A DNA stretch of 11,942 nucleotides from a virus (taxonomy: Duplodnaviria > Heunggongvirae > Uroviricota > Caudoviricetes). Positions 1 to 11,942 of this stretch are shown here, in pieces (position 1 is the first letter of the stretch; the number at the start of each line of letters is the position of its first letter). The DNA lies in the IMG/VR virus record IMGVR_UViG_2529292735_000009, positions 1 through 11,942 of that record. One strand, written 5' to 3'. The position numbers were made by a program, and so were the translations under genes. The notes under the pieces were generated by a model that worked only from the letters and a program-made list of their open reading frames with translations, was not told the origin of the DNA and ran no database searches.

Positions 1-42
1 GTCTGTGCCCTGACTGAGCAATTGCATGGTGGTGTCGGTCAT
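1..42 (-). CDS. 5' end (14 codons, MTDTTMQLLSQGTD...) of a divergently transcribed gene of unknown function; rest lies outside the window
   Basis: ATG at 42-40 on minus strand preceded by GGGAGGG (revcomp of 49-55) at 5-nt spacing; reading frame open to window edge. Too short to identify. Confidence 0.25.
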   Translation of the reverse strand, partial: MTDTTMQLLSQGTD

Positions 43-199
43 CTGTTCCCTCCCTGTGCGGCATGGTCGCATGTGCGTGCGGAGGGGGTTACTGCTTTTT
101 GTTGTCGCCGTGGCGGGAGAACGGCGCAGGGGTGAGATTACGCGCGTGGTGGGTGATGATTGTTGCCGAATCATTTAACGGATACAAGGGGCTGAAGCT

Positions 200-1385
200 A
201 TGAGTGAAACTCGTTTTCATGGTGCCCGTGTTACGGAAAATACCGACCTGGTAACAGCGATTAACGATGTTGATTCCAGCGTTATCGGTATCGTGGCAAC
301 GGCGGATGATGCGGACGCGAAGCTGTTCCCGCTGAACAAGCCCACACTGCTGACCCGCGTCAATGACGTGCTGGGAAAATGCGGGACAACGGGGACGCTT
401 TATCGTGCGCTTAAGGCCATCGCAGACCAGGTGAGCACAAAAGGTGATCGTCGTTCGCGTGGCTGAACACAAAGAAGAAGACGGTAAGACGCAGGATCAA
501 CTGGTTATCGGTGGTTCTGAGGATGACGGCAGCTATACGGGGATGTATGCGCTGCTTGTTGCAGAGCAGGATGAAAGCATCGGATACCGTCCGCGTATTC
601 TGGCCGCGCCGGAGCTGGACACGGAGGCGGTGACAAAATCCCTGTGCGTGATTGCGGGTAAACTGCGCGCGTTTGTGTATGCCACATGTCATGGTTGTAA
701 CACGATGGCTGAGGCGATTACCTACCGCCAGAAATTCAACGAACGTGAGGTGATGCTCTTATGGCCTGACTTCATAGCCTACAACCCGAAAAGTGGCAAA
801 AACGAAACGTTCCCCGCGCCTGCTTATGCGTGCGGCCTTCGTGCGTACATTGACCATGAGCAGGGCTGGCACAAATCGCTGTCCAACGTTCCGGTTAAAA
901 ATGTGCTGGGAATGTCCAGGCATGTGTTCTGGTCGTTGCAGGCCGAAGACAGCGATGCCAACAGCCTCAACAACAAAGAAATCACGACCATTATTCGTCG
1001 CAACGGGTTCCGCTTCTGGGGCAACCGCACACCGGAAACGAACGCCTACATCTTTGAGGTGTATACCCGAACCGCACAGGTGCTGGCTGATTCAATTGCG
1101 GAAGCGCAGTTTGAAACCATCGACAGTCCACTGACGCCTGCGAACGTGAAGGATGTTATCAGTGCCATCAGGGCAAAACTGGATTCACTGGTGACTGCCG
1201 GGAAACTGATTGGTGCGGAGTGCTGGTATGACGTGGTGGATAACGGCACCACGAATTTACGTCAGGGACGTGTGCGTATTCGCTACAAATATACGCCCGT
1301 TCCGCCACTGGAAGACATGGAGCTTTACCAGACGTTTACTGATGAATACTTTGAACCCGCATTTGCGGTGCTGGGAGGTGCCTGA
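200..1385 (+). CDS. FI: Contractile tail sheath protein (P2 gpFI-like), reading frame interrupted by one frameshift near 438-444
   Basis: ORF 200..466 (88 aa) plus ORF 444..1385 (313 aa) in a different frame together read colinearly with remembered P2 FI (e.g. FPLNKP, KLRAFVYA, IIRRNGFRFWGNRT, YTPVPPLE). Combined span 1186 nt; removing one base at AAAAGG 438-444 restores a ~394 aa protein. RBS AAGGGG 8 nt before ATG 200. Confidence 0.9.
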
Positions 1386-1898
1386 TGGCTGTGCCAAAAC
1401 ATCTTCGCTTTTTTACGTCTGTTTGTGGATGGTGAAAACGAAGTGGGTAAGGTGACGTCCGTCTCTCTGCCTAAGCTGACGCGCAAAACCGACAGCTACC
1501 GGGGTGGTGGCATGATGGGTGCGGTAAGTATTGATCTCGGTCTGGACGACTCCGCGCTTGATGCGAGCTTTGCATGGGGGGGGGCTGTTCGTGAGCTGTT
1601 CCTTAAGTATGGCGGCACGATTGACGGCACGCTGCTGCGTTTTGCGGGTGAATACTACACCGATGCAGAAAGCGACCTGTATGAAGTCGAAATGCGCGGA
1701 CGTGTGACGGAAATTGATATGGGGGAAGCCAAACAGGGCGAAGCCACATCACACTCTTACGCCATTAAAAACACCTACTACAAGCTGAGCGTTAACGATC
1801 GCCCGTTGTGGGAGATTGACCTGCTGAACTTCATTTACCGGAAGGACGGCAAGGACATTGTGCCCGATCGCATCCGTTCCGCGCTTGGGCTTGGCTGA
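1385..1898 (+). CDS. FII: Tail tube protein (P2 gpFII-like), frameshifted at T6 homopolymer 1409-1414
   Basis: ATG 1385 overlaps the sheath stop (cTGATGg). Frame from 1385 reads MAVPKHLRFF then stops at 1433-1435; frame of ORF 1425..1898 continues ...LFVDGENEVGKVTSVSLPKLTRKTDSYRGGGMMG, matching P2 FII (MAMPRKLKLMNVFLNG...TLPKLTRK...YRGAGMNG). Shortening T6 to T5 gives a colinear ~170 aa protein. Confidence 0.88.
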
Positions 1899-1952
1899 TA
1901 AGTAATATGCAGGCGGCGCAGTGCGTCGCCTCTGACTGAAAGGAGTTTCCTG

Positions 1953-2318
1953 ATGAAAGAGACGAAAAACATCGATACCGAAAACACGGTAGTTGCTGAC
2001 ACTGTGAAAGAAACCAGTGAGCGTGGCGTAAAACTTACCCAACCAATTGAGCGAGGCGGCGAAAAAATCACGTATGTGGAGATCACCAGGGCTATTGAGC
2101 AGGCTGGATCTCTGCGAGATTTTGTCGCTGTCTGATGTGCTGAATCTGAAAGCGGAATCCATGTTTACGCTGCTGTCACGCGTGACATCACCGCGACTGG
2201 ATGAAGTGACGATCAAAAAATGGCATCCCGTGACTTTATTCAGTTATGTGTGGTTGCCGTAAATTTTTTGAGCGGTGCGGACTCTGGCGGGAAGAACGAA
2301 CAGGCGACGGAAGCCTGA
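1953..2318 (+). CDS. E: Tail assembly chaperone (P2 gpE-like, lambda G analogue); two compensating indels (T4 at 2120-2123 and A6 at 2215-2220)
   Basis: ATG 1953 follows RBS AAGGAG (1940-1945). Reading passes frame 3 (1953..~2120), frame 1 (LSLSDVLNLKAESMFTLLSRVTSPRLDEVTIKK), then frame 3 again (MASRDFIQLCVVAVNFLSGADSGGKNEQATEA, stop 2316-2318). Pattern matches gpE family as I remember it (...LRG.NLSDLL...LLPR.T.P.L...VVGFL). Confidence 0.75.
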
Positions 2319-2482
2319 TCACGGTTGTGTGCTTTGAGCACATAGAAGACTTTGTGGCAGATATTGCCGTTATTTTTAACTGGTCGCCCGCCGAAATCTT
2401 CATGATGACGCCCGGCGAAGTGGTTAGCTGGCGTGAGCGGGCGGCACTTCGCAGCGGGAGTGCAGACAATGAAGACTCTTGA
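1953..2482 (+). CDS. E': E+E' translational frameshift fusion product (tail assembly chaperone long form)
   Basis: E frame to 2270, then -1 frame 2270..2482 (ERCGLWREERTGDGSLITVVCFEHIEDFVADIAVIFNWSPAEIFMMTPGEVVSWRERAALRSGSADNEDS). The E' segment has no start codon of its own and overlaps the T start by 14 nt. Confidence 0.6.
2264..2270 (+). other. Programmed -1 ribosomal frameshift slippery heptamer T_TTT_TTG generating E+E'
   Basis: Heptamer is in X_XXY_YYZ register relative to the E frame (codons TTT 2265-2267, TTG 2268-2270). The -1 frame is open from here for ~70 codons and ends TGA 2480-2482, overlapping the tape-measure start. Same organisation as described for the P2 E/E' operon. Confidence 0.65.
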
Positions 2483-5277
2483 TATCCGGGTCGCTTTCAG
2501 CGCCGTTGACAGGCTGACCCGGCCTGCCGAAAACGCCCGCCGCCTGATGGGGCAGTTTGGTGACTCCATCCAGCGAACGCAGGGGGCGATCAAAAATCTC
2601 GAGCGTCAGGCGCGATCATTTGAGCGCGCCCGTGACGCTGTCAGTAAAGCGGATGCGGGCATCGTGAAAGCACGACGCCAGCTTAACGCCCTTAATCAGT
2701 TACAACGCACGGGTACAGTGCTCAGACGAAAAACAACAAAAGCTGATGCAGCAGTTAAGCACCCGGCTTGAACGCCTGAATGAATCGCGCACACGGGAAA
2801 TTCAGAAAATGCGGGAGCTTGGCGGAGAGCTGAAACGCCACGGCATTTCCCTGACAGGCAGCGATAACACCATCCAGCAGGCCATCAGACGCACCGAACA
2901 ATACAACAACCAGCTTGAACGCGAACGGCAGGCGCTTGCGCGTGTAACGCGGGCGCGTGAGCGGTATTCGCGCGCGCAGGAAACTGCGGGAAAACTGAAA
3001 ACAGGTGGTGCGCTGGCAATTGGTGCGGCAGCGGCTGGCGGCTATGCTGCCGGGCGTTTTTTGCAGCCTGCGATCGGGTTCGGGAAAGAGATGTCCCGCG
3101 TTCAGGCACTGACGCGAATCGACAAAAACAGCCCGCAGTTTAAGGCGCTGCGTGAGCAGGCATTAAAACTTGGCTCTGAAACACAGTTTACTGCGAGTGA
3201 TGCCGCCAGTGGGCAGAGCTTTCTGGCAATGGCTGGTTTTACTCCGCAGGCCATTCAGGCCGCATTGCCCGGTGTTCTTAATATGGCGCTGGCAGGTGGC
3301 GTCGAACTCGGCGAGACGGCTGATATAGGCTCCAATATCCTCACACAGTTCAACCTGACAGCCGATCAAATGGACCGGGTTGGCGATACGCTGACAGCAG
3401 CATTCACCCGGACCAATACTGATTTACGCGCGCTGGGCGAAACCATGAAGTATACCGGTCCGGTTGCCGCAAAACTTGGTATCAGTCTTGAAGAAGCGGC
3501 AGCCATGGCCGGGATGCTTGCCAATAATGGTCTTCGTGGAAGCGATGCTGGTACGGCCATGCGCGCAAGTCTGTCCCGCCTTGCATCACCGCCAAAAGCT
3601 GCGGCTGATGCGCTGAAAGAGCTGGGGGTGTCAGTTGCTGACGCCAGAGGCAAAATGCGCCCGATGGAGGATGTGCTGCTTGATCTCTATAAGGCGACAC
3701 AAAAATACGGACAGGTGGACCAGGTTTCCTTCTTCAAGGACATCGCCGGAGAAGAGGCGTTCGTTGGTTTGCAGACGCTTGTTGCGGCGGCTGGTTCAGG
3801 AGAGCTGCAAAAACTGACCAGAGAATTGCAGGGGGCAAGGGGAGAGGCCGATCGCGTCGCAAAAGTAATGGCCGATAATCTTGATGGGGACTTGAAAAAT
3901 CTCGACAGCGCATGGGAAGGTCTTCGTATTCGCATCAGTGATCTGGTTGACGGTCCGCTGCGTTCTGTCACGCAGTGGCTCACGCGGGTGCTTGAAAAAA
4001 TCACCTCGCTGGCGCAGGCCCATCCGGTGCTGACGCGCCAGCTACTGATAGCAGGCGGTGCGTTGCTGGCAATGACTGCAACGATTGGCTCGTTGTCGCT
4101 GGTTATTGGGGTGCTTTACGGGAAGTTGGCCACCCTGCGTCTTGGTTTTGACATTCTTACCCGGTCAATGAATGTCGTCAGGGTGTTGCCTGCGCTGTGG
4201 GGAATGGTGACGGGATCCGTTTCTTTACTGGGAGGCGCTATTGGGGCGCTGTTCAGTCCGGTTGGTCTTATCGTGGCTGCGCTTGCCGGAGCTGCCGTTC
4301 TTATCTGGAAATACTGGGATCCCATCAGGGCATTTTTTGCCGGGGTGTTCAGCGGGATTATGGAAAGGCTGACCCCGTTGCGCGAAACCTTTGAACGGTT
4401 TGGTCCTGTTTTTGACGCAATCGGAAGCGGGATAAGCCAGGTGTTTAACTGGTTTAAATCGCTGCTGTCACCGATGGAGTCCAGCAAGGAAACGCTGGAT
4501 AAATGTACCAGTGCTGGCGAGATATTCGGTAACGTTCTTGGCGGTGCGTTACAACTTGTTCTGACACCTGCAAAAATGTTGCTGGATACGCTGGCGTGGA
4601 TACTTGAAAAGCTCGGTGTGCTTCCGGATGAAGCGGAAAGGGCGCGCAAAAAAATCGAAGACGCACAGCGTGCGGCCATTCTTCAGGACAAGGTTGCCTT
4701 GCTTCAGGGGGACCTGGCGAAAATCAATCCGCCGAAGCCTGTGGAAAATGGCAATGGCACCGGAGGTGATAAACCCAAAGACAACAAACCGCTCACAGAC
4801 AGCAATACCGGTACGCTACGCAGACTCAGCAAAATTGCTGATAACACAGGTAAGCTGGTTGATGAGACGAAAAAACGCATTGGCCCCGGCGATATTGTCT
4901 TTAAGAACCTGCCCCGCGCACTTGCTGTTCGTGGGGAGTGGCAGGAGCGGAAGATTGCGCAGGTCAGTAAGCCTGCCCCCGCAATTAATATCACACCCGT
5001 GGTTCCGGCTCCGCTGCCTCCGGCGCTGGTCCCTGTTGTTGCGACCAGCTCCCGCCCGGTGGCGGAGGCCATACGATCGCCAGTGGCATCAGTTCCTGCA
5101 ACTTCCCGTAACCGGGAGCCTGTTGCCTCCGGATTTGGCGGTGAAATTCATGTTCATCTGCATAACGTTGTTACACAGAATCCCCGCGAACTGGCGAAAC
5201 TGGTCGGTGAAATGGTCAGGGCAGAAATGGAACGGCGCGCCCGTGCCAGGCGTGGCAGTTTTTACGATAAAGATTGA
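2469..5277 (+). CDS. T: Tail tape measure protein (P2 gpT-like), frameshifted once between 2668 and 2771
   Basis: ATG 2469 with RBS GGAG 8 nt upstream. N-terminal ~85 codons are in the frame of ORF 2433..2771, then the 843-aa ORF 2746..5277 continues in the +1 frame (open from 2668). Coiled-coil-like N-terminus, central tape-measure core (GSDAGTAMRASLSRLASPPKAA...), hydrophobic Gly/Ala-rich segments and Pro-rich C-terminus. Candidate homopolymers for the shift: A5 2729-2733, A4 2738-2741. Confidence 0.9.
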
Positions 5278-5289
5278 GGAGTCATGGCC

Positions 5290-5778
5290 ATGATGATGAT
5301 CTACGGCATGTTTGTTTTTGAGCTGCGCACGTTGCCGCATCAGCAGTTACAGCAAAACAAAAGCTGGCGACATGTGAAAAATGAACGCGTTAACCGTTCA
5401 GCAAGCTGGCAGTATATCGGTGCAGGTGATGATCGCATCGTTCTTTCTGGTGTTCTTTATCCTGAGATTACTGGTGGCGAAGTGTCGCTGTCGTTGTTGA
5501 CCACGCAGGCATATACAGGACGTCCTTGGCCTTTGATTGATGGCGTCGGGCAGATTTACGGCATGTATGTCCTGACCGGAACGAATACGACCCGCTCCGA
5601 GTTTGATCGCTACGGTAAGGCGAAAAAGATAGAATTTTCACTGACTCTTGAACGCTGTGATGAGGATTTGCGGGAGCGCCTGCAATCCTCATCGTTCAGC
5701 GATATGCTGTCCGGCTTCAAAGATAAGGTGACATCATCCCTTAATAGCGCGGCCAGCTCAGTTAAGGGGCTGCTCTGA
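5290..5778 (+). CDS. U: Tail protein U (P2 gpU-like)
   Basis: ORF 5284..5778; starts MAMMMIYGMFVFELRTLPHQQLQ..., like P2 gpU (MMMVLGLFVFML...). GAGGAG at 5276-5281 is only 2 nt from ATG 5284, so ATG 5290 or 5293 is the more likely start. Confidence 0.85.
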   Translation: MMMIYGMFVFELRTLPHQQLQQNKSWRHVKNERVNRSASWQYIGAGDDRIVLSGVLYPEITGGEVSLSLLTTQAYTGRPWPLIDGVGQIYGMYVLTGTNTTRSEFDRYGKAKKIEFSLTLERCDEDLRERLQSSSFSDMLSGFKDKVTSSLNSAASSVKGLL

Positions 5779-5854
5779 TTTAACGTATGTCGCCAATTTC
5801 CTGATGAAGGTGACTGGCGACTTGCTGTTGTATGTCCTTCTCAGAAAATTGTTT

Positions 5855-5883
5855 TTGAATAACAAATAACAGGATTTTATAAT
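5855..5883 (+). promoter_or_regulatory. Near-consensus sigma70 promoter: -35 TTGAAT (5855-5860), 17-bp spacer, -10 TATAAT (5878-5883)
   Basis: Read directly from sequence. Sits ~50 nt upstream of the acetyltransferase RBS, inside the AT-rich island. Confidence 0.5.
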
Positions 5884-5934
5884 CTCTTAACCTTATAACA
5901 TGTGTGGTCTGAAATAATAATTAAGGAGATTATC

Positions 5935-6507
5935 GTGCTATCTTACTTAATGGCAATTCACTTTGTTTTATTTGGAAACTCTACTAATTTAAAAGACTTC
6001 TGGAAACATGAAGTAATTCGGCGGAAACGTATGGATATCTGGAGGCTTTTAAGAGAGAAAAAGCAGCGTAACCGGAATTTCCTTTTCTGGTGGCGGTTGG
6101 CTAACGAAATGTATATTAATGGTAATAAATTACATAAGAAAGCAGCCAAAAAATTAAACAGTAAAATAATTAACAAGTTTGGTTGTGAAATAGGATTGGG
6201 CGCAAATATTGGAAAAGGGTTGACAATTCCCCATCATGCTGGAATTGTTGTTCATTTTGCTGTTGATGCGGGTGAAAATCTGGTATTACGACAGAATACT
6301 ACCATTGGACAGATAGATGGTGATATGCCTGGTTCAAGAGTAAAAATTGGTAGTAACGTTGATATCGGAGCTAATTGTTGCATCATTGGATTATCACGTA
6401 AAATTGGGGATAATGTAAAAATAGGTGCAATGTCTTTTATAAATAAAGATATACCATCAAACTGCACATATATAACTAAAAAGAGTGGTGTTGTATTGTA
6501 TAAATAG
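5935..6507 (+). CDS. Hexapeptide-repeat (left-handed beta-helix) acetyltransferase, serine-acetyltransferase/WcaB/LacA-like; probable prophage moron
   Basis: ORF 5902..6507. RBS AAGGAG 5923-5928, then GTG 5935 at 6-nt spacing (alternative starts GTG 5902, ATG 5950). Motifs typical of the CysE-like acyltransferase fold: FWWRLANEMYINGNKLHKKAAKKLNSKI, GCEIGLGANIGKGLTIPHHAGIVV, tandem [LIV]G hexapeptide repeats, C-terminal IGANCCIIG...IGAMSFINKDIPSN. G+C visibly far lower than the flanking tail genes. Confidence 0.8.
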   Translation: MLSYLMAIHFVLFGNSTNLKDFWKHEVIRRKRMDIWRLLREKKQRNRNFLFWWRLANEMYINGNKLHKKAAKKLNSKIINKFGCEIGLGANIGKGLTIPHHAGIVVHFAVDAGENLVLRQNTTIGQIDGDMPGSRVKIGSNVDIGANCCIIGLSRKIGDNVKIGAMSFINKDIPSNCTYITKKSGVVLYK

Positions 6508-6514
6508 AATACAT

Positions 6515-6555
6515 AAAGCCATCGATATTTCTGTCGATGGCTTTTTCTTTTTATT
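6515..6555. terminator. Intrinsic terminator between convergent genes: 11-bp perfect stem AAAGCCATCGA / TCGATGGCTTT, 8-nt loop, T-rich tail
   Basis: Stem 6515-6525 and 6534-6544, loop 6526-6533, then TTCTTTTTATT (6545-6555). On the minus strand the hairpin is followed by a weaker U-rich stretch, so it could also serve tfa. Confidence 0.6.
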
Positions 6556-7135
6556 GTGGGGCGACTGGCCACTCAACATCCGCTGCTACTGTTGTATCAA
6601 CACGATTCAACAATACCCGATATGTCTTCCATGCAGCCAGTAACGATGCCTCTTCCTCCGTCGCAATATCCAAATCTACGGCATCCTGAAGTGGCGCAAT
6701 ATGCTCACTGGCTACCTGCATCAGGCTGTTTTTTGTTTCTTCTGCCTCCCGTACCCGAAACAGTTTTTCTGCTTCTGCATCTTTCGCCCAGGATGTGCCG
6801 TTCCACTTCTGACACTCTCCATCCGGCGACAACCAGGTAACATTTTCCGGTAACGGACCGAGTTCAGAAATAAATAACGCGTCCCCTGATGCCACGTCAT
6901 AAACAGTTTTACCCCGATGATCTTCAACGAGATGCCACGATGCCTCATCACTGTTGAAAACAGCCACGAAGCCAGCCGGAATATCTGGCGGTGCAATATC
7001 GGTACTGTTTGCAGGCAGACCTGTATGAGGTGGAATGTATGCATCACCTTCCCCAATAAATTCATTAGTTCCGGCCAGCAGGTTATAAATTTTTATGGTC
7101 CGTGATTGTTCACTCATTCTGAAATCCATGTTCAC
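6551..7135 (-). CDS. tfa: Tail fibre assembly protein (Tfa, lambda/e14 TfaE-like chaperone)
   Basis: 194-aa ORF ([55 protein letters not shown]...), very close to E. coli prophage Tfa proteins as I remember them. GTG 7135 has no spacer after the GAGG RBS, so ATG 7129 is a likely true start. Confidence 0.88.
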
Positions 7136-7137
7136 CT

Positions 7138-7506
7138 CTACTTAATATCAGAGACAGAATATTGTTTATTGAGCGTATGGGTGGGAGTACCAATAACGAT
7201 GCTACTTCCGTGGCTATGTGCGCCAGAGGTGACATTACCTACGGGATTTTCTGGATTAATCCGGTGTATATGCGAACCAGGGCGAAAACGGTTATTAGCC
7301 TGATGTTGTATCAGTACATCATCAGCCTGATGTTCAGGGTTAATACAGACTTGCCCGGAACGTGAGCAACACGTCCGATAATCGCCGCATCCAATATATT
7401 TAGTATCCGCATAACGGCAAACAGAATTACCCGGACAGTATGCATATGTGCCAAATACTGCCGACTGGCGAGATTGTGCGTATTCCCAGTTAATTGATTC
7501 TGTTTT
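7138..7506 (-). other. 122-codon open frame without start codon, Cys/His-rich; probable C-terminal continuation of the macro-domain protein after a homopolymer indel, or relic of an older tail-fibre 3' end
   Basis: The frame opens exactly at the A6 run (plus-strand T6 7503-7508) where the macro domain ends, and stops at TAG 7140-7138, 2 nt before the tfa start. Translation: [60 protein letters not shown]...[33 protein letters not shown]. Confidence 0.4.
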
Positions 7507-8039
7507 TTATTAAAGTTATCCCATGCCTGCTTCATCTGTCGTGCAACACTTTCAAACGGCACCTGACCACATCCGGCCCCCATTGCAGGGAATACCACTG
7601 TTTTTATTTTCATGTCTGTCGTTGCGTTTTTATTGTGCTGAAAGATGGCAAGCAGAGCGGCCCAGGTTGCGTTATATACAGCGTCTGTTCCGTCAATTGT
7701 CAACGGAACACGCATTGTTGGCGCATGTACCAGCCAGGGGTGATGATTATGCCCCGTTTCAATGACAAATGCAGAACCTACAGGCTGTTCGCCGAGATAT
7801 TCACGAAGAATATGATTCTGAACGCGGGACTGTAACTGAGTACCGAAGAATGCGGTAATGGCGGCATCAACGCCACCATCCATCAGGCCGAAACTATTTG
7901 CCGCACTTACCATGCAGTCAAATTCTCTGATTGTTTCAAATGGCTTTCCGACAATATTCACACTATCTGCATTTGCAAATATCCGTTTAAATGCTTCAGC
8001 CATTTCTGTTACTGGTGCAGAAAGAATGAGCGTAATCAT
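7311..8039 (-). CDS. Macro-domain protein (ADP-ribose binding / ADP-ribosyl hydrolase fold), as read in the given frame; probably longer (see next feature)
   Basis: ATG 8039-8037 overlaps the H stop (ATGA). Macro signatures: [28 protein letters not shown] (compare VNAAN..L..GGGV..AI) and [26 protein letters not shown] (compare FPAIS.G.YG.P). G+C lower than the neighbouring tail genes. Confidence 0.75.
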
Positions 8040-10054
8040 GCAAGCCTCACAATATAGTTAAATGCGATGTTTTTTACGGTGTTTTCTGCGTTACCCGTAG
8101 CGTTAACGGTGATGGTATGCCCGTGTGAACCTATCGCAACGGAGTGTGTGTGTGCACCAATTCCTACCGTATGAGTGTGTGCGCCAATATTTACTGTGTG
8201 AGAGTGCCCCCCTGCGTTACTTGTTTTTCCAGTGCCAAGCCCTGAGTTATAACCAGCCGAAACACCATTACCAGCACCAGTGTTGCCAACAGGAATATTG
8301 TGTGAATGATCCCCGGCGCTATTCGTGGTTTTAGTGCCATGGTTAAATGAACTGGACGTCTTGGTACCGTAATCAAACGACGATGTGGTTTTCGTCCCCA
8401 AATCCGTACTGGATGCACTGGCGCTGTGGGTGTGCGATTTAATGCCGTCCTGTTCCTGAGACAATACTGCACGACCACTGGCGGGCTTGCCCTTAATCGT
8501 CCAGCTACGCATATCAGGGATCACGCCTGACGGATAAGCGGCTGCAAGTTTCGGGTATGCAGATTTGTCAAAAGTCTGCCCCTGCATCAGGGCATAACCA
8601 GACGGAACGGTATCTGATGGCCAAGGGATCGGTGCGCCAACCGGATAAAGTTCATGAGGCGAAATATACAGCGAATAAACAGAACCGTCCGTTAATCCTT
8701 CCGGCTTATTAGCAGAATATGCTGGTGAAGTATGAATCGTTACGCTGGCGTTACTGGTATAATCCCATTGAATATTTACACCAGTCGCATAATTTCCGAT
8801 TGCAACGTAAATATCGTAAGTATCACCAGATGTATTGACCCAGGCAAAATTTGTAAACCCTGCCGATGTGCGCTGCCATAAAGCACCAGTAATCCCCTTC
8901 GGATTACCATTACCTGCACGCAAAACAAGTTCAGATATACCTGCCTGTTGAGGTGAGCCGACGTTATATCCAGCCCCACCAATCAACGTAATTGAAACAA
9001 CAGAACTCGCCTGCGGCATGGTTACCGTTGCTAATTTGAACCAACCAGCACCACTGCTGAATGACATAGTTGTTGAGTTAAGCGTACCAATATCTTTCGG
9101 TGTCAGTGTTATATCCGCTGAAAGCGCCTTACCATTCACCTTACGGGCAGAAGGTACCCGACCATTCGCATTGTCATTAGCTGCTTTCACTGCTTTCGAT
9201 GTCGCAGCAAGCGTTTCAGATGTGCTGTTAGTCGCGCTGCTTAGCTGGACAATCCCTTTTTGTGCTGTCGTAGCGTCCTGAGCGGTATATTTCCCGTTAG
9301 CAAGGTCATATGCTGCCTTTACCGCCATTGGTGTTGCCGCCAGCGTTTCAGAATCGCTGTTGGTGGCGCTACTGAGCTGGACAAGGCCTTTTCGCGCTGT
9401 GGTGGCATCCTGCGCAGTATATTTCCCGTTAGCAAGATCATACGCGGCCTTTACTGCTTTCGGCGTTGCAGCCTGCGTTTCAGACACGCTGGTAGTGTCG
9501 CTACTGAGTTGAACAAAGCCTTTTTGCGGTCAGCGAGGCATCCGGGGTGACGTCGTGACTGTTCATGCTCTTTCAGTTTGTCATCCACGTAATCCACTGT
9601 GGCCATCACCATGGTGTTATCCACGGTAAGCGCCACGGTGGCAGTGCTGGATACGGTCAGAATGGTGCGAAATGTTTGTGCACGACCGGACCCTTCGGCA
9701 ACGGCTGGCTTGTAACTTTCGGCAGTATTGACCCACCGCGATTAAATCGCCGTGCTCATCAAATACACCAATTTCCCGGATCCAGAATCCGCCCGTTTCA
9801 GGAGGAATAACCAGCTCCGCAATAATGCGGTTCTGATGTGTTGCGTCCAGGATGACGCGATTAACAGTGTGTCGCCACACCTCATGCACCAGACGGGTCT
9901 GCTTACTGTCTGGTGTGGGCAACGTGCCGCCACCGTCGCCCACGGCCATATGAGTCAGGCGGACAGGCTTACCATCTGGCGCGGCTGCCTGAGCTAATTT
10001 TTTGGCACCCGTATCGGTGATAAGGGTTTTAAATTTTCGTGTTGTGGTACTCAT
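8036..10054 (-). CDS. H: Tail fibre protein (P2 gpH-like N-terminus, tandem fibre repeats, gp37/Stf-like HxH C-terminus); three frameshifts at 9732-9734, 9545-9548 and 9521-9525
   Basis: ORF 9617..10054 ([28 protein letters not shown]...MAVGDGGG...HEVWRH...[10 protein letters not shown]) matches the P2 H N-terminus; ORF 9451..9636 ([28 protein letters not shown]) and ORF 8036..9487 continue it. Fragments join colinearly if one base is removed from CCC 9732-9734, GGGG 9545-9548 and TTTTT 9521-9525. C-terminus carries [32 protein letters not shown] repeats. Confidence 0.9.
9150..9530 (-). repeat. In-frame tandem repeat, ~132 nt (44 aa) period, ~2.8 copies, inside the tail fibre gene
   Basis: Protein repeats KG[FLI][36 protein letters not shown] occur three times; the DNA repeat is visible on the plus strand (tatatttcccgttagcaag[g/a]tcata... 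twice). Boundaries approximate. Confidence 0.6.
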
Positions 10055-10056
10055 GC

Positions 10057-10587
10057 TTAATCGTCCGGATAAATGGTAATGACTTCACCGTCGTAAGTTG
10101 CTGCCGCCGCGAAAATATCCCCCGGGATCTCCTGAATGATATTCAGCCCTGTCATGTGGCGGCTGACCGGGCGGGCATCAGCAATCAACCGCTCCATTTC
10201 CAGATACATTTCCTCCGTCACGCCACTGTCCAGCGTGCCGACTTCAACGGTAAATGTTCCCGGTTCTCCGCCGAACTCCCACCACTCAGACACGCGAATG
10301 AGGTATCCCAGCGGCTCAATGGCCCTGCGCAGTGCGCTGATGGTCCCTTTGTGTCGGTGTATCAGCCATGCATCACTAATCACCTGTCGCTTTGTCTCTT
10401 CCGGCCAGTTGCGATCCCAGCGGTCAACGGAAAACGCCCAGGCGAGATAAGGCAGCAGGTGCACCGGGCAGGTGTCCGGCGACCACAGCGTGTTGAGGTC
10501 TACCGGAATGTCTGTAATGCGTGTTCCGACGGCTTCGGCACAACGCATGAAACTGCTGGCTGATGGTGGTAACAGTGAATTACTCAT
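10057..10587 (-). CDS. I: Baseplate protein gpI-like (tail protein I)
   Basis: ORF 10057..10620, but the likely start is ATG 10587, overlapping the J stop (ATGAGTAA), giving 176 aa (P2 gpI is about that size). Stop is 2 nt before the H start. Confidence 0.85.
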   Translation of the reverse strand: MSNSLLPPSASSFMRCAEAVGTRITDIPVDLNTLWSPDTCPVHLLPYLAWAFSVDRWDRNWPEETKRQVISDAWLIHRHKGTISALRRAIEPLGYLIRVSEWWEFGGEPGTFTVEVGTLDSGVTEEMYLEMERLIADARPVSRHMTGLNIIQEIPGDIFAAAATYDGEVITIYPDD

Positions 10588-11476
10588 TGCGCCCACCTTC
10601 GCTGATGGTGAATGACTCACAGCGCGCTGCCTGTATGTCGCTGATGGCCATATTCTGTGTGGGTTCGATTATCTCCACGCGTTGCACACCGTGCACATGC
10701 AGTGCGGCAGCAATGGCGGACAACGCCACGTCCTGACCGATAAGCCCCTGCTCAGCCAGCCACTTCCTGAACGACGATTCCGCCGCAGCCAGAATAGGTT
10801 CGGATTCCGGGCCGGGGTAAAAGTACAGTTTTGCATTCAGCCGCCATGTCACGATTCTGGCACTCTGTACGGTCAGGCGGTCGGCCACCGGGCGGGTATC
10901 CTCTGCATTCAGAACGGCGCGAACGGTATTAAGCAACGCCTCCGTTGCTGTGCCGTCGCCTTCAGTGGACAGGATGGAAACCGTCACATTTGCCGGAGAC
11001 GGACTGATAGCCCGCGCATCACGCACCAGACCGCTGGCGCTGCGGGCAAAATACTCGTATGCACCTGACGGGCCAGCAACACTCAGGCCGTCGTACGCCC
11101 GTTGCGCCCGCAGTCTCAGCGAGGTGTCGCTTTCCATCACCGCGTCGGTGGTATCCGTTGCCGGAGTGATAACCAGGCGCTTTGTGTTCATATTGCCCGC
11201 GAGGTTGTCCAGGTCTGTCCCGGCGCTGTGGCTTAACATGCAGGCGCGTGCACCCTCGTTAACCCGCTGGCGTAACAGCATTTCACGAAACGACATGGTT
11301 TGAGCGATAACGTTAAGGGGTTCCGATTCCAGCTCCAGCGCGGCGGAAACGGCTTCACGCTGTTCGGCGGGATAAGCCGCAATCATCATGGCCTTTGTGT
11401 CAGCCAGAATTGCCTCAAAGTCAGGCTCCGCGATGATGGCGGGGTCCGGTAACTGTGAAAGGTCAACGGCGGGCAT
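10580..11476 (-). CDS. J: Baseplate assembly protein gpJ-like (baseplate wedge)
   Basis: 298-aa ORF, similar in size to P2 gpJ as I recall it; starts 3 nt after the W stop, with RBS GAGGGA inside the W 3' end. The J identity rests on position and size within the V-W-J-I-H order rather than on motifs I can quote. Confidence 0.88.
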   Translation of the reverse strand: MPAVDLSQLPDPAIIAEPDFEAILADTKAMMIAAYPAEQREAVSAALELESEPLNVIAQTMSFREMLLRQRVNEGARACMLSHSAGTDLDNLAGNMNTKRLVITPATDTTDAVMESDTSLRLRAQRAYDGLSVAGPSGAYEYFARSASGLVRDARAISPSPANVTVSILSTEGDGTATEALLNTVRAVLNAEDTRPVADRLTVQSARIVTWRLNAKLYFYPGPESEPILAAAESSFRKWLAEQGLIGQDVALSAIAAALHVHGVQRVEIIEPTQNMAISDIQAARCESFTISEGGRNE

Positions 11477-11479
11477 GAT

Positions 11480-11830
11480 TTACTCCCTCAGCGTGATGGT
11501 TAATTCAACATTCTGCATGGTCTGCATGACAGTGCCCGACAGCGTCACCCCGGCGCGGCCTCCCGCTTTCCAGACAACGTCGATGGCATCCAGGGCAATG
11601 CGGGGTTCCCATCGTGTCAGCGCAATCACGGCAGCACTCATGCATTGCAGACGCGTGGTGTTATTCATGGGTTCGTCAATCAAATCAGGCACAAGGCTGC
11701 CATATTCCCGTCGCATAACCCGGCTTGCCAGCGGGGTGGTCAGGATATCCCTGACTGACTGTTTCAGGTGCTCCATATCGTTCAGGTTTCCCGTCCCGTC
11801 CGGATTCATTCCTGTGTAGCGGGTTGTCAC
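11480..11830 (-). CDS. W: Baseplate protein gpW-like (gp25/GPW family)
   Basis: 116-aa ORF MTTRYTGMNPDGTGNLNDMEHLKQSVRDILTTPLASRVMRREYGSLVPDLID..., matching P2 gpW (MTARYLGMNR...DLEHI.QSI.DIL.TP.GSRVMRRDYGSL) in sequence and length. GTG start overlaps the stop of the upstream gene (GTGA). Confidence 0.9.
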   Translation of the reverse strand: MTTRYTGMNPDGTGNLNDMEHLKQSVRDILTTPLASRVMRREYGSLVPDLIDEPMNNTTRLQCMSAAVIALTRWEPRIALDAIDVVWKAGGRAGVTLSGTVMQTMQNVELTITLRE

Positions 11831-11942
11831 TGCGGGCCTCCTGTCGAATCGCTGCCACCTTTCACGCCACCGTGTTTATGCGTATGCACGGTAATGCCGT
11901 TTGAGGTGAAATTGCCGCCGCTGTGCGTGATATTGCCGCTCA
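11827..11942 (-). CDS. V: 3' end of baseplate spike protein gpV-like gene (5' part outside window)
   Basis: Open frame from the window edge reading ...SGNITHSGGNFTSNGITVHTHKHGGVKGGSDSTGGPQ*, stop TGA overlapping the W start; position immediately upstream of W as in P2 (V-W-J-I-H). Gly/His-rich C-terminus is typical of gpV spikes. Confidence 0.65.
   Translation of the reverse strand, partial: SGNITHSGGNFTSNGITVHTHKHGGVKGGSDSTGGPQ

Follow-up and report, generated by a model that had tools for sequence, protein, structure and literature searches.

An AT-rich hexapeptide-repeat acetyltransferase gene at a tail-module junction of a P2-family Escherichia coli prophage: a candidate modifier of surface glycans

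What does a small AT-rich acetyltransferase gene do at the junction of two tail modules of a temperate phage, and on what substrate might its product act? The question is raised by an 11,942-nucleotide stretch of DNA, hereafter the window, which comprises positions 1 to 11,942 of IMG/VR record IMGVR_UViG_2529292735_000009. The window corresponds to the tail region of a P2-family Escherichia coli prophage and carries the gene between gpU, on the plus strand, and the tail fibre assembly gene tfa, on the minus strand. A preliminary description, made from the sequence, had seen here a self-contained, horizontally acquired cassette for lysogenic conversion, whose enzyme might O-acetylate O-antigen or capsule or else acetylate xenobiotics. 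Judging from its sequence relationships and genomic contexts, we think it on balance probable that the gene encodes a lysogenic-conversion O-acetyltransferase that acts on lipopolysaccharide (LPS) or another surface glycan and thereby masks the receptor.

The protein falls into the hexapeptide-repeat beta-helix superfamily, matching Pfam Hexapep (E = 3e-5; at 24 bits, just below the 27-bit gathering score), 21 beta-helix families of NCBIfam at E<=0.01 and, with a profile built from 31 homologues and the best 60 matches considered, structures in the PDB down to E = 4e-24. The sub-classification by profile search that had been proposed for it leads to the CysE/EpsC/WcaB branch, and not to LacA/Maa or XAT. 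Serine acetyltransferases (SATs) head the PDB matches, at E = 4e-24 over residues ~53-180, with LacA at 5e-13, and the best NCBIfam match is EpsC, at 75.5 bits against a cut-off of 150; WcaB reaches 53.8 bits against 194.65. Neither of these last two identities holds, both scores being below the equivalog cut-offs and the gene lying in a prophage with no wca or eps cluster. Scores of 28.5 bits for LacA (cut-off 347) and 21.5 bits for Maa (cut-off 314) rule out those identities, and the Vat/CatB xenobiotic type is likewise ruled out, since no Vat, CatB or XAT family appears at E<=0.01 in NCBIfam or among the 60 best PDB matches. Profile evidence thus describes a left-handed beta-helix acetyltransferase of the CysE/EpsC/WcaB branch, yet none of CysE, WcaB or EpsC proper. 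Of the roles put forward beforehand, glycan O-acetylation is favoured because the enzyme classifies with these families, whereas xenobiotic acetylation of the Vat/CatB type finds no support.

Databases give the enzyme a different role. Its family, phrog_2154, has no function assigned, and its PGAP name is “serine O-acetyltransferase”. A genuine enzyme of that kind would be an auxiliary metabolic gene product raising O-acetylserine and cysteine in the lysogen or during phage growth, and CysE is indeed among the nearest solved structures and the top characterised families. The predicted catalytic acid/histidine pair, E85/H100, is retained as well: H100 aligns with the catalytic histidine of SATs and is at least 90% conserved in the 31 homologues, while E85 aligns with the SAT aspartate in a column that keeps D or E across all of them; a distant allele, from phage vB_EcoM-613R2 (613R2), has no histidine in the column aligned with H100. 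Against this, the CysE models score only 61.7 bits (TIGR01172, cut-off 210.65) and 36.8 bits (PRK11132, cut-off 397), the match is limited to the beta-helix and one helix, the N-terminal domain has ~80 residues in place of the ~140 of CysE, and the C-terminus (...VVLYK) is without the CysK-binding tail. Serine-binding roles are known from SAT structures for Asp157, Arg192 and His193 (E. coli numbering); these positions align with Pro99 and a variable loop (SRV). In addition, relatives of the gene lie in waa/LPS clusters rather than cys operons. Because all curated cut-offs are missed, the serine-binding residues are absent, the N-terminal domain is short and the tail is lacking, we regard the database name as probably wrong and a true serine acetyltransferase as very unlikely.

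The company kept by distant relatives bears on the substrate. We sampled one genome per species, giving 80 loci with 40-70% identity, and the informative chromosomal contexts point to LPS and polysaccharide, the relatives in LPS-core or polysaccharide clusters being 40-48% identical. In Leminorella the order is GT4-GT8-WaaY-x-acetyltransferase, convergent with the WaaL ligase gene. An Orbaceae genome has a family gene directly after a GT9 heptosyltransferase gene, and in Pelagadaptatus and the P. abyssi/Halopseudomonas group the gene comes after HldE or amid genes for HldE, MsbA, a small kinase and NeuB/Pse proteins. GT2 genes or a pyruvyl transferase gene adjoin it in four other loci, following GT2 genes in Pseudocitrobacter and Pseudomonas and the pyruvyl transferase gene in Zophobihabitans. 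Across these cross-species loci, the G+C content of the gene is on average 8 points below that of its flanks. The Leminorella grimontii locus (L063) deserves mention in its own right: its waa-type cluster (302-5815) holds a 48%-identical member between the WaaY kinase gene plus an MptE-like gene on one side and the convergent WaaL gene on the other, and this member may represent an undescribed step of core O-acetylation.

The gene also behaves as horizontal cargo, as the preliminary description had proposed from its composition. Phage P88 (Xuanwuvirus) matches the window by blastn over 1-5784 and 9175-11942, with 95-97% identity on both sides, and the 3.4 kb between 5784 and 9175 replaces the DNA invertase, alternative fibre tip and second tfa that P88 carries at this junction. 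Presence or absence among phages otherwise ~95-97% identical, together with a deviant G+C content of 0.33 against 0.55, marks it as a moron. The proposed correspondence to the Z/fun hotspot of P2 is merely positional in the window, because the left neighbour is gpU instead of FI, the FI-U block being inverted in P88-like phages; in relatives it is literal, for seven loci of canonical P2-like phages hold a family gene between tfa and the sheath gene, in opposite orientation to both, that is, in the P2 G|Z/fun|FI slot.

Further homology lies in P1-like phages. In JL22, one block (window 5936-7123, acetyltransferase plus tfa) is 91.6% identical and a second (window 8032-9092, the tip of the JL22 fibre gene stf) is 90.5% identical, the homology beginning at the start codon with unrelated DNA upstream. 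There the acetyltransferase gene is part of the unique central DNA of the cin-invertible C segment and is flanked by 602-bp inverted repeats; bounded in this way, it is a cargo gene inside a P1-type invertible segment. The JL22 repeats (L001, 3401-4002 and 8263-8864) are 99% complementary over 602 bp and contain Cin-type cores, and the segment contains two fibre-tip/tfa sets besides the acetyltransferase. No Hin/Gin/Cin-type crossover core, long inverted repeats or invertase gene occurs in the window, which rules out an invertible segment there; JL22 and P88 have both sites. Alleles 35-67% identical stand convergent with tfa in 613R2, Hafnia phage yong2, Citrobacter phage phiNP, IncY phage-plasmids, and prophages of Gilliamella, Buttiauxella and Salmonella. 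Because the acetyltransferase moves into P1-like phages along with tfa and the fibre tip, a mobile fibre-tip/tfa module of which it is one member describes it, on these homologies, better than a cargo hotspot in the backbone does.

Such joint travel, together with the recurrent tfa neighbourhood, could also be explained if the enzyme acted on its own virion, acetylating the tail fibre or aiding its assembly. We consider this highly improbable: the gene is convergent to the fibre operon, with its own promoter-like site and a terminator in between; P88 and most P1- and P2-like phages build fibres without it; similar tfa genes are paired with very different acetyltransferase alleles; and relatives are found both in LPS clusters of chromosomes and on plasmids that have no fibre genes.

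Within the gene, variation is unevenly distributed. The L147 allele (4001-4570, against window 5935-6504) is mosaic, with ends 90-98% identical (promoter, first 65 nucleotides, last 100 nucleotides, terminator and tfa) and a centre (window 6001-6400) only 40-74% identical, so that the differences are concentrated in residues ~100-155. This pattern points to within-gene recombination. The centre of L147 resembles other alleles, of the P0008/P0028 type.

The anatomy of the cassette accords with the preliminary description throughout, every sequence feature attributed to it being present, in place or displaced by a few bases. G+C content is 0.33-0.37 over 5700-6600 and 0.48-0.61 in the flanks (300-bp windows), and the low-G+C segment of ~0.7 kb takes the form of a cassette at 5836-6550 with a G+C content of 0.330 against 0.550 for the P88-like backbone. 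A hairpin without a T-run (-21.2 kcal/mol, z = -4.6) precedes it, and the near-consensus sigma70 promoter sequence is found as claimed, with a predicted transcript start at ~5890 and hence a leader of ~45 nucleotides. The ribosome-binding site, AAGGAG, is kept in all aligned non-P1 contexts. The acetyltransferase reading frame, foreseen at 190-200 residues, has a maximal extent of 201 residues (5902-6507) and, since homologues align from the GTG at 5935, a probable length of 190. In the leader, the RNA fold is no better than that of shuffled sequence (z = 0.21), and an Rfam search gave no match within the cassette, which rules out an RNA element there.

Downstream, the terminator stem AAAGCCATCGA / TCGATGGCTTT is the perfect 11-bp stem that had been described, or 13 pairs counting the next two, and is followed by TTCTTTTTAT. 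On the plus strand it folds at -19.1 kcal/mol (z = -7.3), with 0 of 200 shuffles folding as well; it folds on the minus strand too (-16.5 kcal/mol, z = -5.4) and can therefore also end the convergent tfa. Alleles at least 85% identical retain the stem, with the exception of JL22, in which one stem base is changed; L146 keeps the stem with an altered loop, and the hairpin found in this position in L148 is not homologous.

Taken together, these elements suggest the following mechanism. A horizontally acquired AT-rich gene would have lodged as a moron after tfa of a P88-like (Xuanwuvirus, P2-family) E. coli prophage and would be transcribed independently of the late tail operons, in the lysogen included. 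Its product, a predicted cytoplasmic, probably trimeric, acetyl-CoA-dependent O-acetyltransferase, would modify an LPS sugar (of the core or O-unit) or another surface polysaccharide at the cytoplasmic face, as WcaB does with colanic acid. The surface structure seen by fibre-bearing phages would be altered, so that the receptor would be masked or superinfecting phages excluded; serology and interaction with the host might be affected in passing. The allele differences in residues ~100-155, a region that takes in the stretch matching the acceptor-binding loop of SATs in the alignment, would then probably reflect different acceptor sugars.

Several observations weigh against this glycan-modifying role. 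A literature search returned no characterisation, transcript or phenotype data for the acetyltransferase, and the paper on JL22 notes the gene and states its role as unknown (PMC9603915). In the AlphaFold2 (AF2) model, a five-helix N-terminal domain of ~80 residues is confident and the beta-helix is of low confidence (predicted local distance difference test, pLDDT, 50-60). As to enzyme class, Foldseek listed serine acetyltransferases for 50 of 50 matches, the better-aligned ones at a template-modelling (TM) score of ~0.65; because the beta-helix model is of low confidence, these fold matches add little to the sequence profiles. No O-acetyl group is known from the structures published for the O157 O-antigen and the R3 core, which counts against the proposal because nearly all of the O157:H7 genomes listed carry the gene. 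In E. coli, H-NS often silences DNA of so high an A+T content. Linkage to the fibre is imperfect too: 613R2 pairs a tfa 78% identical to that of the window with an acetyltransferase only 37% identical, and because of this the coupling to tfa and fibre specificity, read from these alleles, is loose, with alleles swappable independently. Early phage matches had suggested that the gene always stands beside tfa; the species-wide sample rules this out, with a convergent tfa at only 5 of the 80 loci, and the tfa association is recurrent, not defining.

The same sample contains clear LPS or polysaccharide clusters at only ~13 of its 80 loci; many relatives are singletons among housekeeping genes, and at 8 loci (apparently a Rahnella set) the nearest downstream reading frame encodes a GGDEF/PAS/GAF protein. 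Such singletons without glycan context would also suit an enzyme with another intracellular target (an antibiotic or other xenobiotic, a signalling molecule, a nucleotide-sugar or part of an invading phage) that serves resistance, defence or counter-defence. That variable cargo is known from the position behind tfa in P2-like phages (PMC3573123), and that the family occurs on conjugative plasmids beside toxin-antitoxin genes, speak for it as well. We nevertheless judge this alternative unlikely: PADLOC defence models gave 0 families at E<=0.01, so that identity with a known defence system was rejected; no Vat/CatB/XAT family appeared at E<=0.01 in NCBIfam or among the 60 best PDB matches, and the LacA and Maa matches were weak; and the informative chromosomal contexts are LPS-core and polysaccharide loci.

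The promoter is a further point on this adverse side. The cassette's own promoter and terminator signals are present and conserved in sequence; the promoter match taken alone, however, is within chance for such AT-rich DNA, with 4 promoter-like sites observed in 5300-7300 against 4.5 expected. The match gains support because it is placed in the intergenic gap beyond the gpU-distal hairpin, because it is 96% identical in L147, whose coding centre is so divergent, and because P1-like relatives show a non-homologous near-consensus promoter, TTGACA-18-TAAAAT, at the corresponding place. About 40 loci in P88-like prophages have the identical site; in L137, L144 and L146 it has decayed to TTAAAT/TACACT.

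This chance-level promoter match, along with the frameshifted state of the window's sheath, tape-measure, macro-domain and fibre genes relative to the intact prophage of strain 493/89, would fit a decaying, non-functional passenger of a defective prophage. We regard that as extremely improbable. The reading frame is intact here and in 58 of 58 complete copies among close relatives (one further copy ends at a contig edge), the catalytic residues are kept, and the gene is retained in the CP-933T remnant of EDL933. Ratios of non-synonymous to synonymous substitution rates (dN/dS) are 0.02-0.17 against relatives, at dS up to 0.44; judging from these comparisons, the gene is under purifying selection. 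The intact frame among frameshifted neighbours in the window was dropped as evidence of selection, not being significant at this error density.

A broader extension of surface-glycan acetylation comes from plasmids. A 52-55%-identical allele, carried by 188 plasmids, is found on I-complex conjugative plasmids (IncI1/B/O, IncI-gamma/K1 and IncK2/Z) in a conserved slot that runs replicon, yacAB-type toxin-antitoxin genes, hypothetical gene, acetyltransferase, and ProQ/FinO on the opposite strand (examples L170-L173, the acetyltransferase being for instance L172 2983-3570). It is also found on an IncFIB/FIC plasmid of the enteropathogenic E. coli (EPEC) type. The PilV adhesins of I-complex-type plasmids bind defined LPS-core sugars (PMC5430464). 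The family could accordingly be a receptor-masking device common to mobile elements that dock on LPS, namely phages with fibre modules of the P2, P1 and Mu types and I-complex plasmids with PilV, with chromosomal cousins placed in waa core clusters, a proposal that we treat as doubtful. An LPS-core or O-unit sugar would be O-acetylated and carrier cells would no longer be recognised by the element's own adhesin, one mechanism thus serving both superinfection exclusion and surface exclusion, with the mosaic centre setting the sugar. This shared idea is so far weakly supported.

The gene's setting confirms the claim that an AT-rich, self-contained cassette sits where two tail modules meet: the sheath-tube-tape-gpU block on the plus strand converges with the baseplate-fibre-tfa block on the minus strand (Table 1). 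The window is ~97% identical to prophages that lie beside the leuZ tRNA cluster of E. coli strains including O157:H- 493/89 and O55:H7, and its tfa is 99% identical to that of 493/89. Positions 5700-6700 are 99.6% identical to the CP-933T remnant of O157:H7 EDL933, in which the acetyltransferase copy is intact and annotated as WP_000954203.1, “serine O-acetyltransferase”, and the fibre, baseplate and head genes are lost. The 1-kb junction, at >=80% of its length, is present in ~510 of 5,426 complete E. coli genomes (~9%).

Table 1. Coordinates of features in the window
Feature	Position	Strand	Basis
Tape measure	2746-5277	+	Pfam and open reading frames (ORFs)
gpU	5284-5778	+	Pfam and ORFs
Hairpin after gpU stop codon; left edge of replaced region	5779-5835	+	Fold; P88 homology ends at 5784
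Sigma-70-type promoter-like site TTGAAT-17-TATAAT	5855-5883	+	10/12 consensus positions
Shine-Dalgarno AAGGAG	5923-5928	+	6 nt 5' of GTG 5935; read from sequence
Acetyltransferase gene, 190 aa	5935-6507	+	GTG start; homologue alignment, profiles
Intrinsic-terminator hairpin common to acetyltransferase and tfa	6515-6544		Fold; T-run on + strand
Tail fibre assembly gene tfa (Caudo_TAP), probable start ATG 7129	6551-7135	-	Pfam E = 7e-40
Macro-domain protein	7311-8039	-	Pfam and ORFs
Distal (receptor-binding) part of tail fibre gene	8032-9092	-	90.5% identical to JL22 stf tip
Tail fibre	8036-9487 and 9617-10054	-	Pfam and ORFs
gpI, gpJ, gpW	10057-11830	-	Pfam and ORFs

Compared with the 493/89 prophage, the window has frameshifts or disruptions at ~442 (sheath), ~2741 (tape measure), ~7400-7500 (macro-domain gene) and ~9500-9700 (fibre), with gpU, the acetyltransferase, tfa, gpI, gpJ and gpW intact; either the prophage is decaying or the assembly is error-prone. 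The macro-domain gene, frameshifted here, constitutes a precise 908-bp insertion (7124-8031) from the fibre stop codon to the tfa start relative to JL22. Its intact counterpart (L169, 19135-20037; 300 residues) overlaps the fibre stop codon (ATGA) and ends 8 nucleotides before tfa, and therefore lies within the late fibre operon. The product belongs to phrog_2613, with no function assigned, and has a weak DarG-like match; homologues adjoin tail-fibre genes in Gifsy-1, SEN4/5 and Chuche and bear a “tail protein” label in jumbo phages, and the protein may be virion-associated or a late ADP-ribose-processing protein. A functional link to the acetyltransferase through acetyl-ADP-ribose chemistry was rejected, JL22, 613R2 and other phages having the acetyltransferase without the macro gene. 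On the minus strand at 6588-6786, there is a full-length match to the Rfam family IS009 (RF02111; 191 bits against a gathering score of 117), wholly inside the tfa coding sequence and on its coding strand, so that this “sRNA family” may simply be conserved 3' coding DNA of tfa from cryptic prophages.

That AT-rich acetyltransferase morons lie beside the receptor-binding genes of temperate phages is already known, and the family is present in databases, where it is probably misnamed. New, on a descriptive level, are the sub-classification, the finding that the gene is transferred together with fibre tip and tfa into the P1 invertible segment, the mosaicism of its central part, and the fact that family members occur on I-complex plasmids and in clusters for the LPS core. 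The gene is common, being present at this junction in about one in eleven complete E. coli genomes and also in P1-like phage-plasmids and I-complex resistance plasmids, and the cysteine-biosynthesis annotation used for it everywhere is very probably wrong. If the enzyme does acetylate surface glycans, it would be a hidden cause of phage resistance and of variation in surface and serology among pathogenic E. coli, with a bearing on phage therapy, glycan-based typing and vaccines, and would account for a cargo gene that travels with the receptor-binding module among unrelated phages. If the plasmid copies act alike, phage superinfection exclusion and conjugative surface exclusion would be linked through one enzyme family.

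Among known systems, CysE shares the fold branch and the catalytic histidine/acid pair and is the nearest solved structure; in the window protein, by contrast, the N-terminal domain is shortened, serine-binding residues and a C-terminal tail are absent, and the profile scores fall short of the cut-offs. EpsC, of exopolysaccharide, and WcaB, of colanic acid, are likewise short CysE-like beta-helix enzymes, of ~150-170 residues with a small helical N-terminal domain, and offer a mechanistic model in the acetyl-CoA-dependent O-acetylation of a lipid-linked sugar at the cytoplasmic face, although the window protein has ~45 extra N-terminal residues. For position, the comparison is with neaT, which occupies “moron position 2” of a P2-like prophage in CFT073 (PMC3573123), and with P2 Z/fun: all are AT-rich (~30% G+C) single-gene cargo after tfa, opposite to the tail genes (PMC3573123), rare or variable among P2-like phages, and relatives of the window gene fill the same tfa|x|sheath slot. 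The window gene departs from them in its left neighbour, gpU instead of FI, and NeaT is an integral-membrane protein of the Acyl_transf_3 family (PF01757), an unrelated fold.

For function, Oac of Sf6 and GtrC of P22-like phages and BTP1 show that prophage-encoded O-acetylation of LPS during lysogeny blocks superinfection (PMC3630932, PMC7067206). The biological role that we propose is the same, even though those enzymes are membrane acyltransferases acting on the periplasmic side and the window enzyme is of the soluble beta-helix type. In Klebsiella, prophage acetyltransferases have been found to predict capsule type (PMC13123978). NeuO of prophage CUS-3 in E. coli K1 acts as an acetyltransferase on the K1 capsule and confers protection from K1 phage (PMC13001214). 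It takes polysialic acid as acceptor and is phase-variable through heptanucleotide repeats; Tandem Repeats Finder, run over 5700-6700 with a minimum score of 30, detected nothing, ruling out NeuO-like phase variation here. By description rather than by sequence, however, NeuO is the same kind of element, a phage-borne cytoplasmic hexapeptide-repeat O-acetyltransferase encoded as cargo by the receptor-binding protein gene, and, modifying as it does the very glycan that phages use, it is the closest functional precedent for the gene described here.

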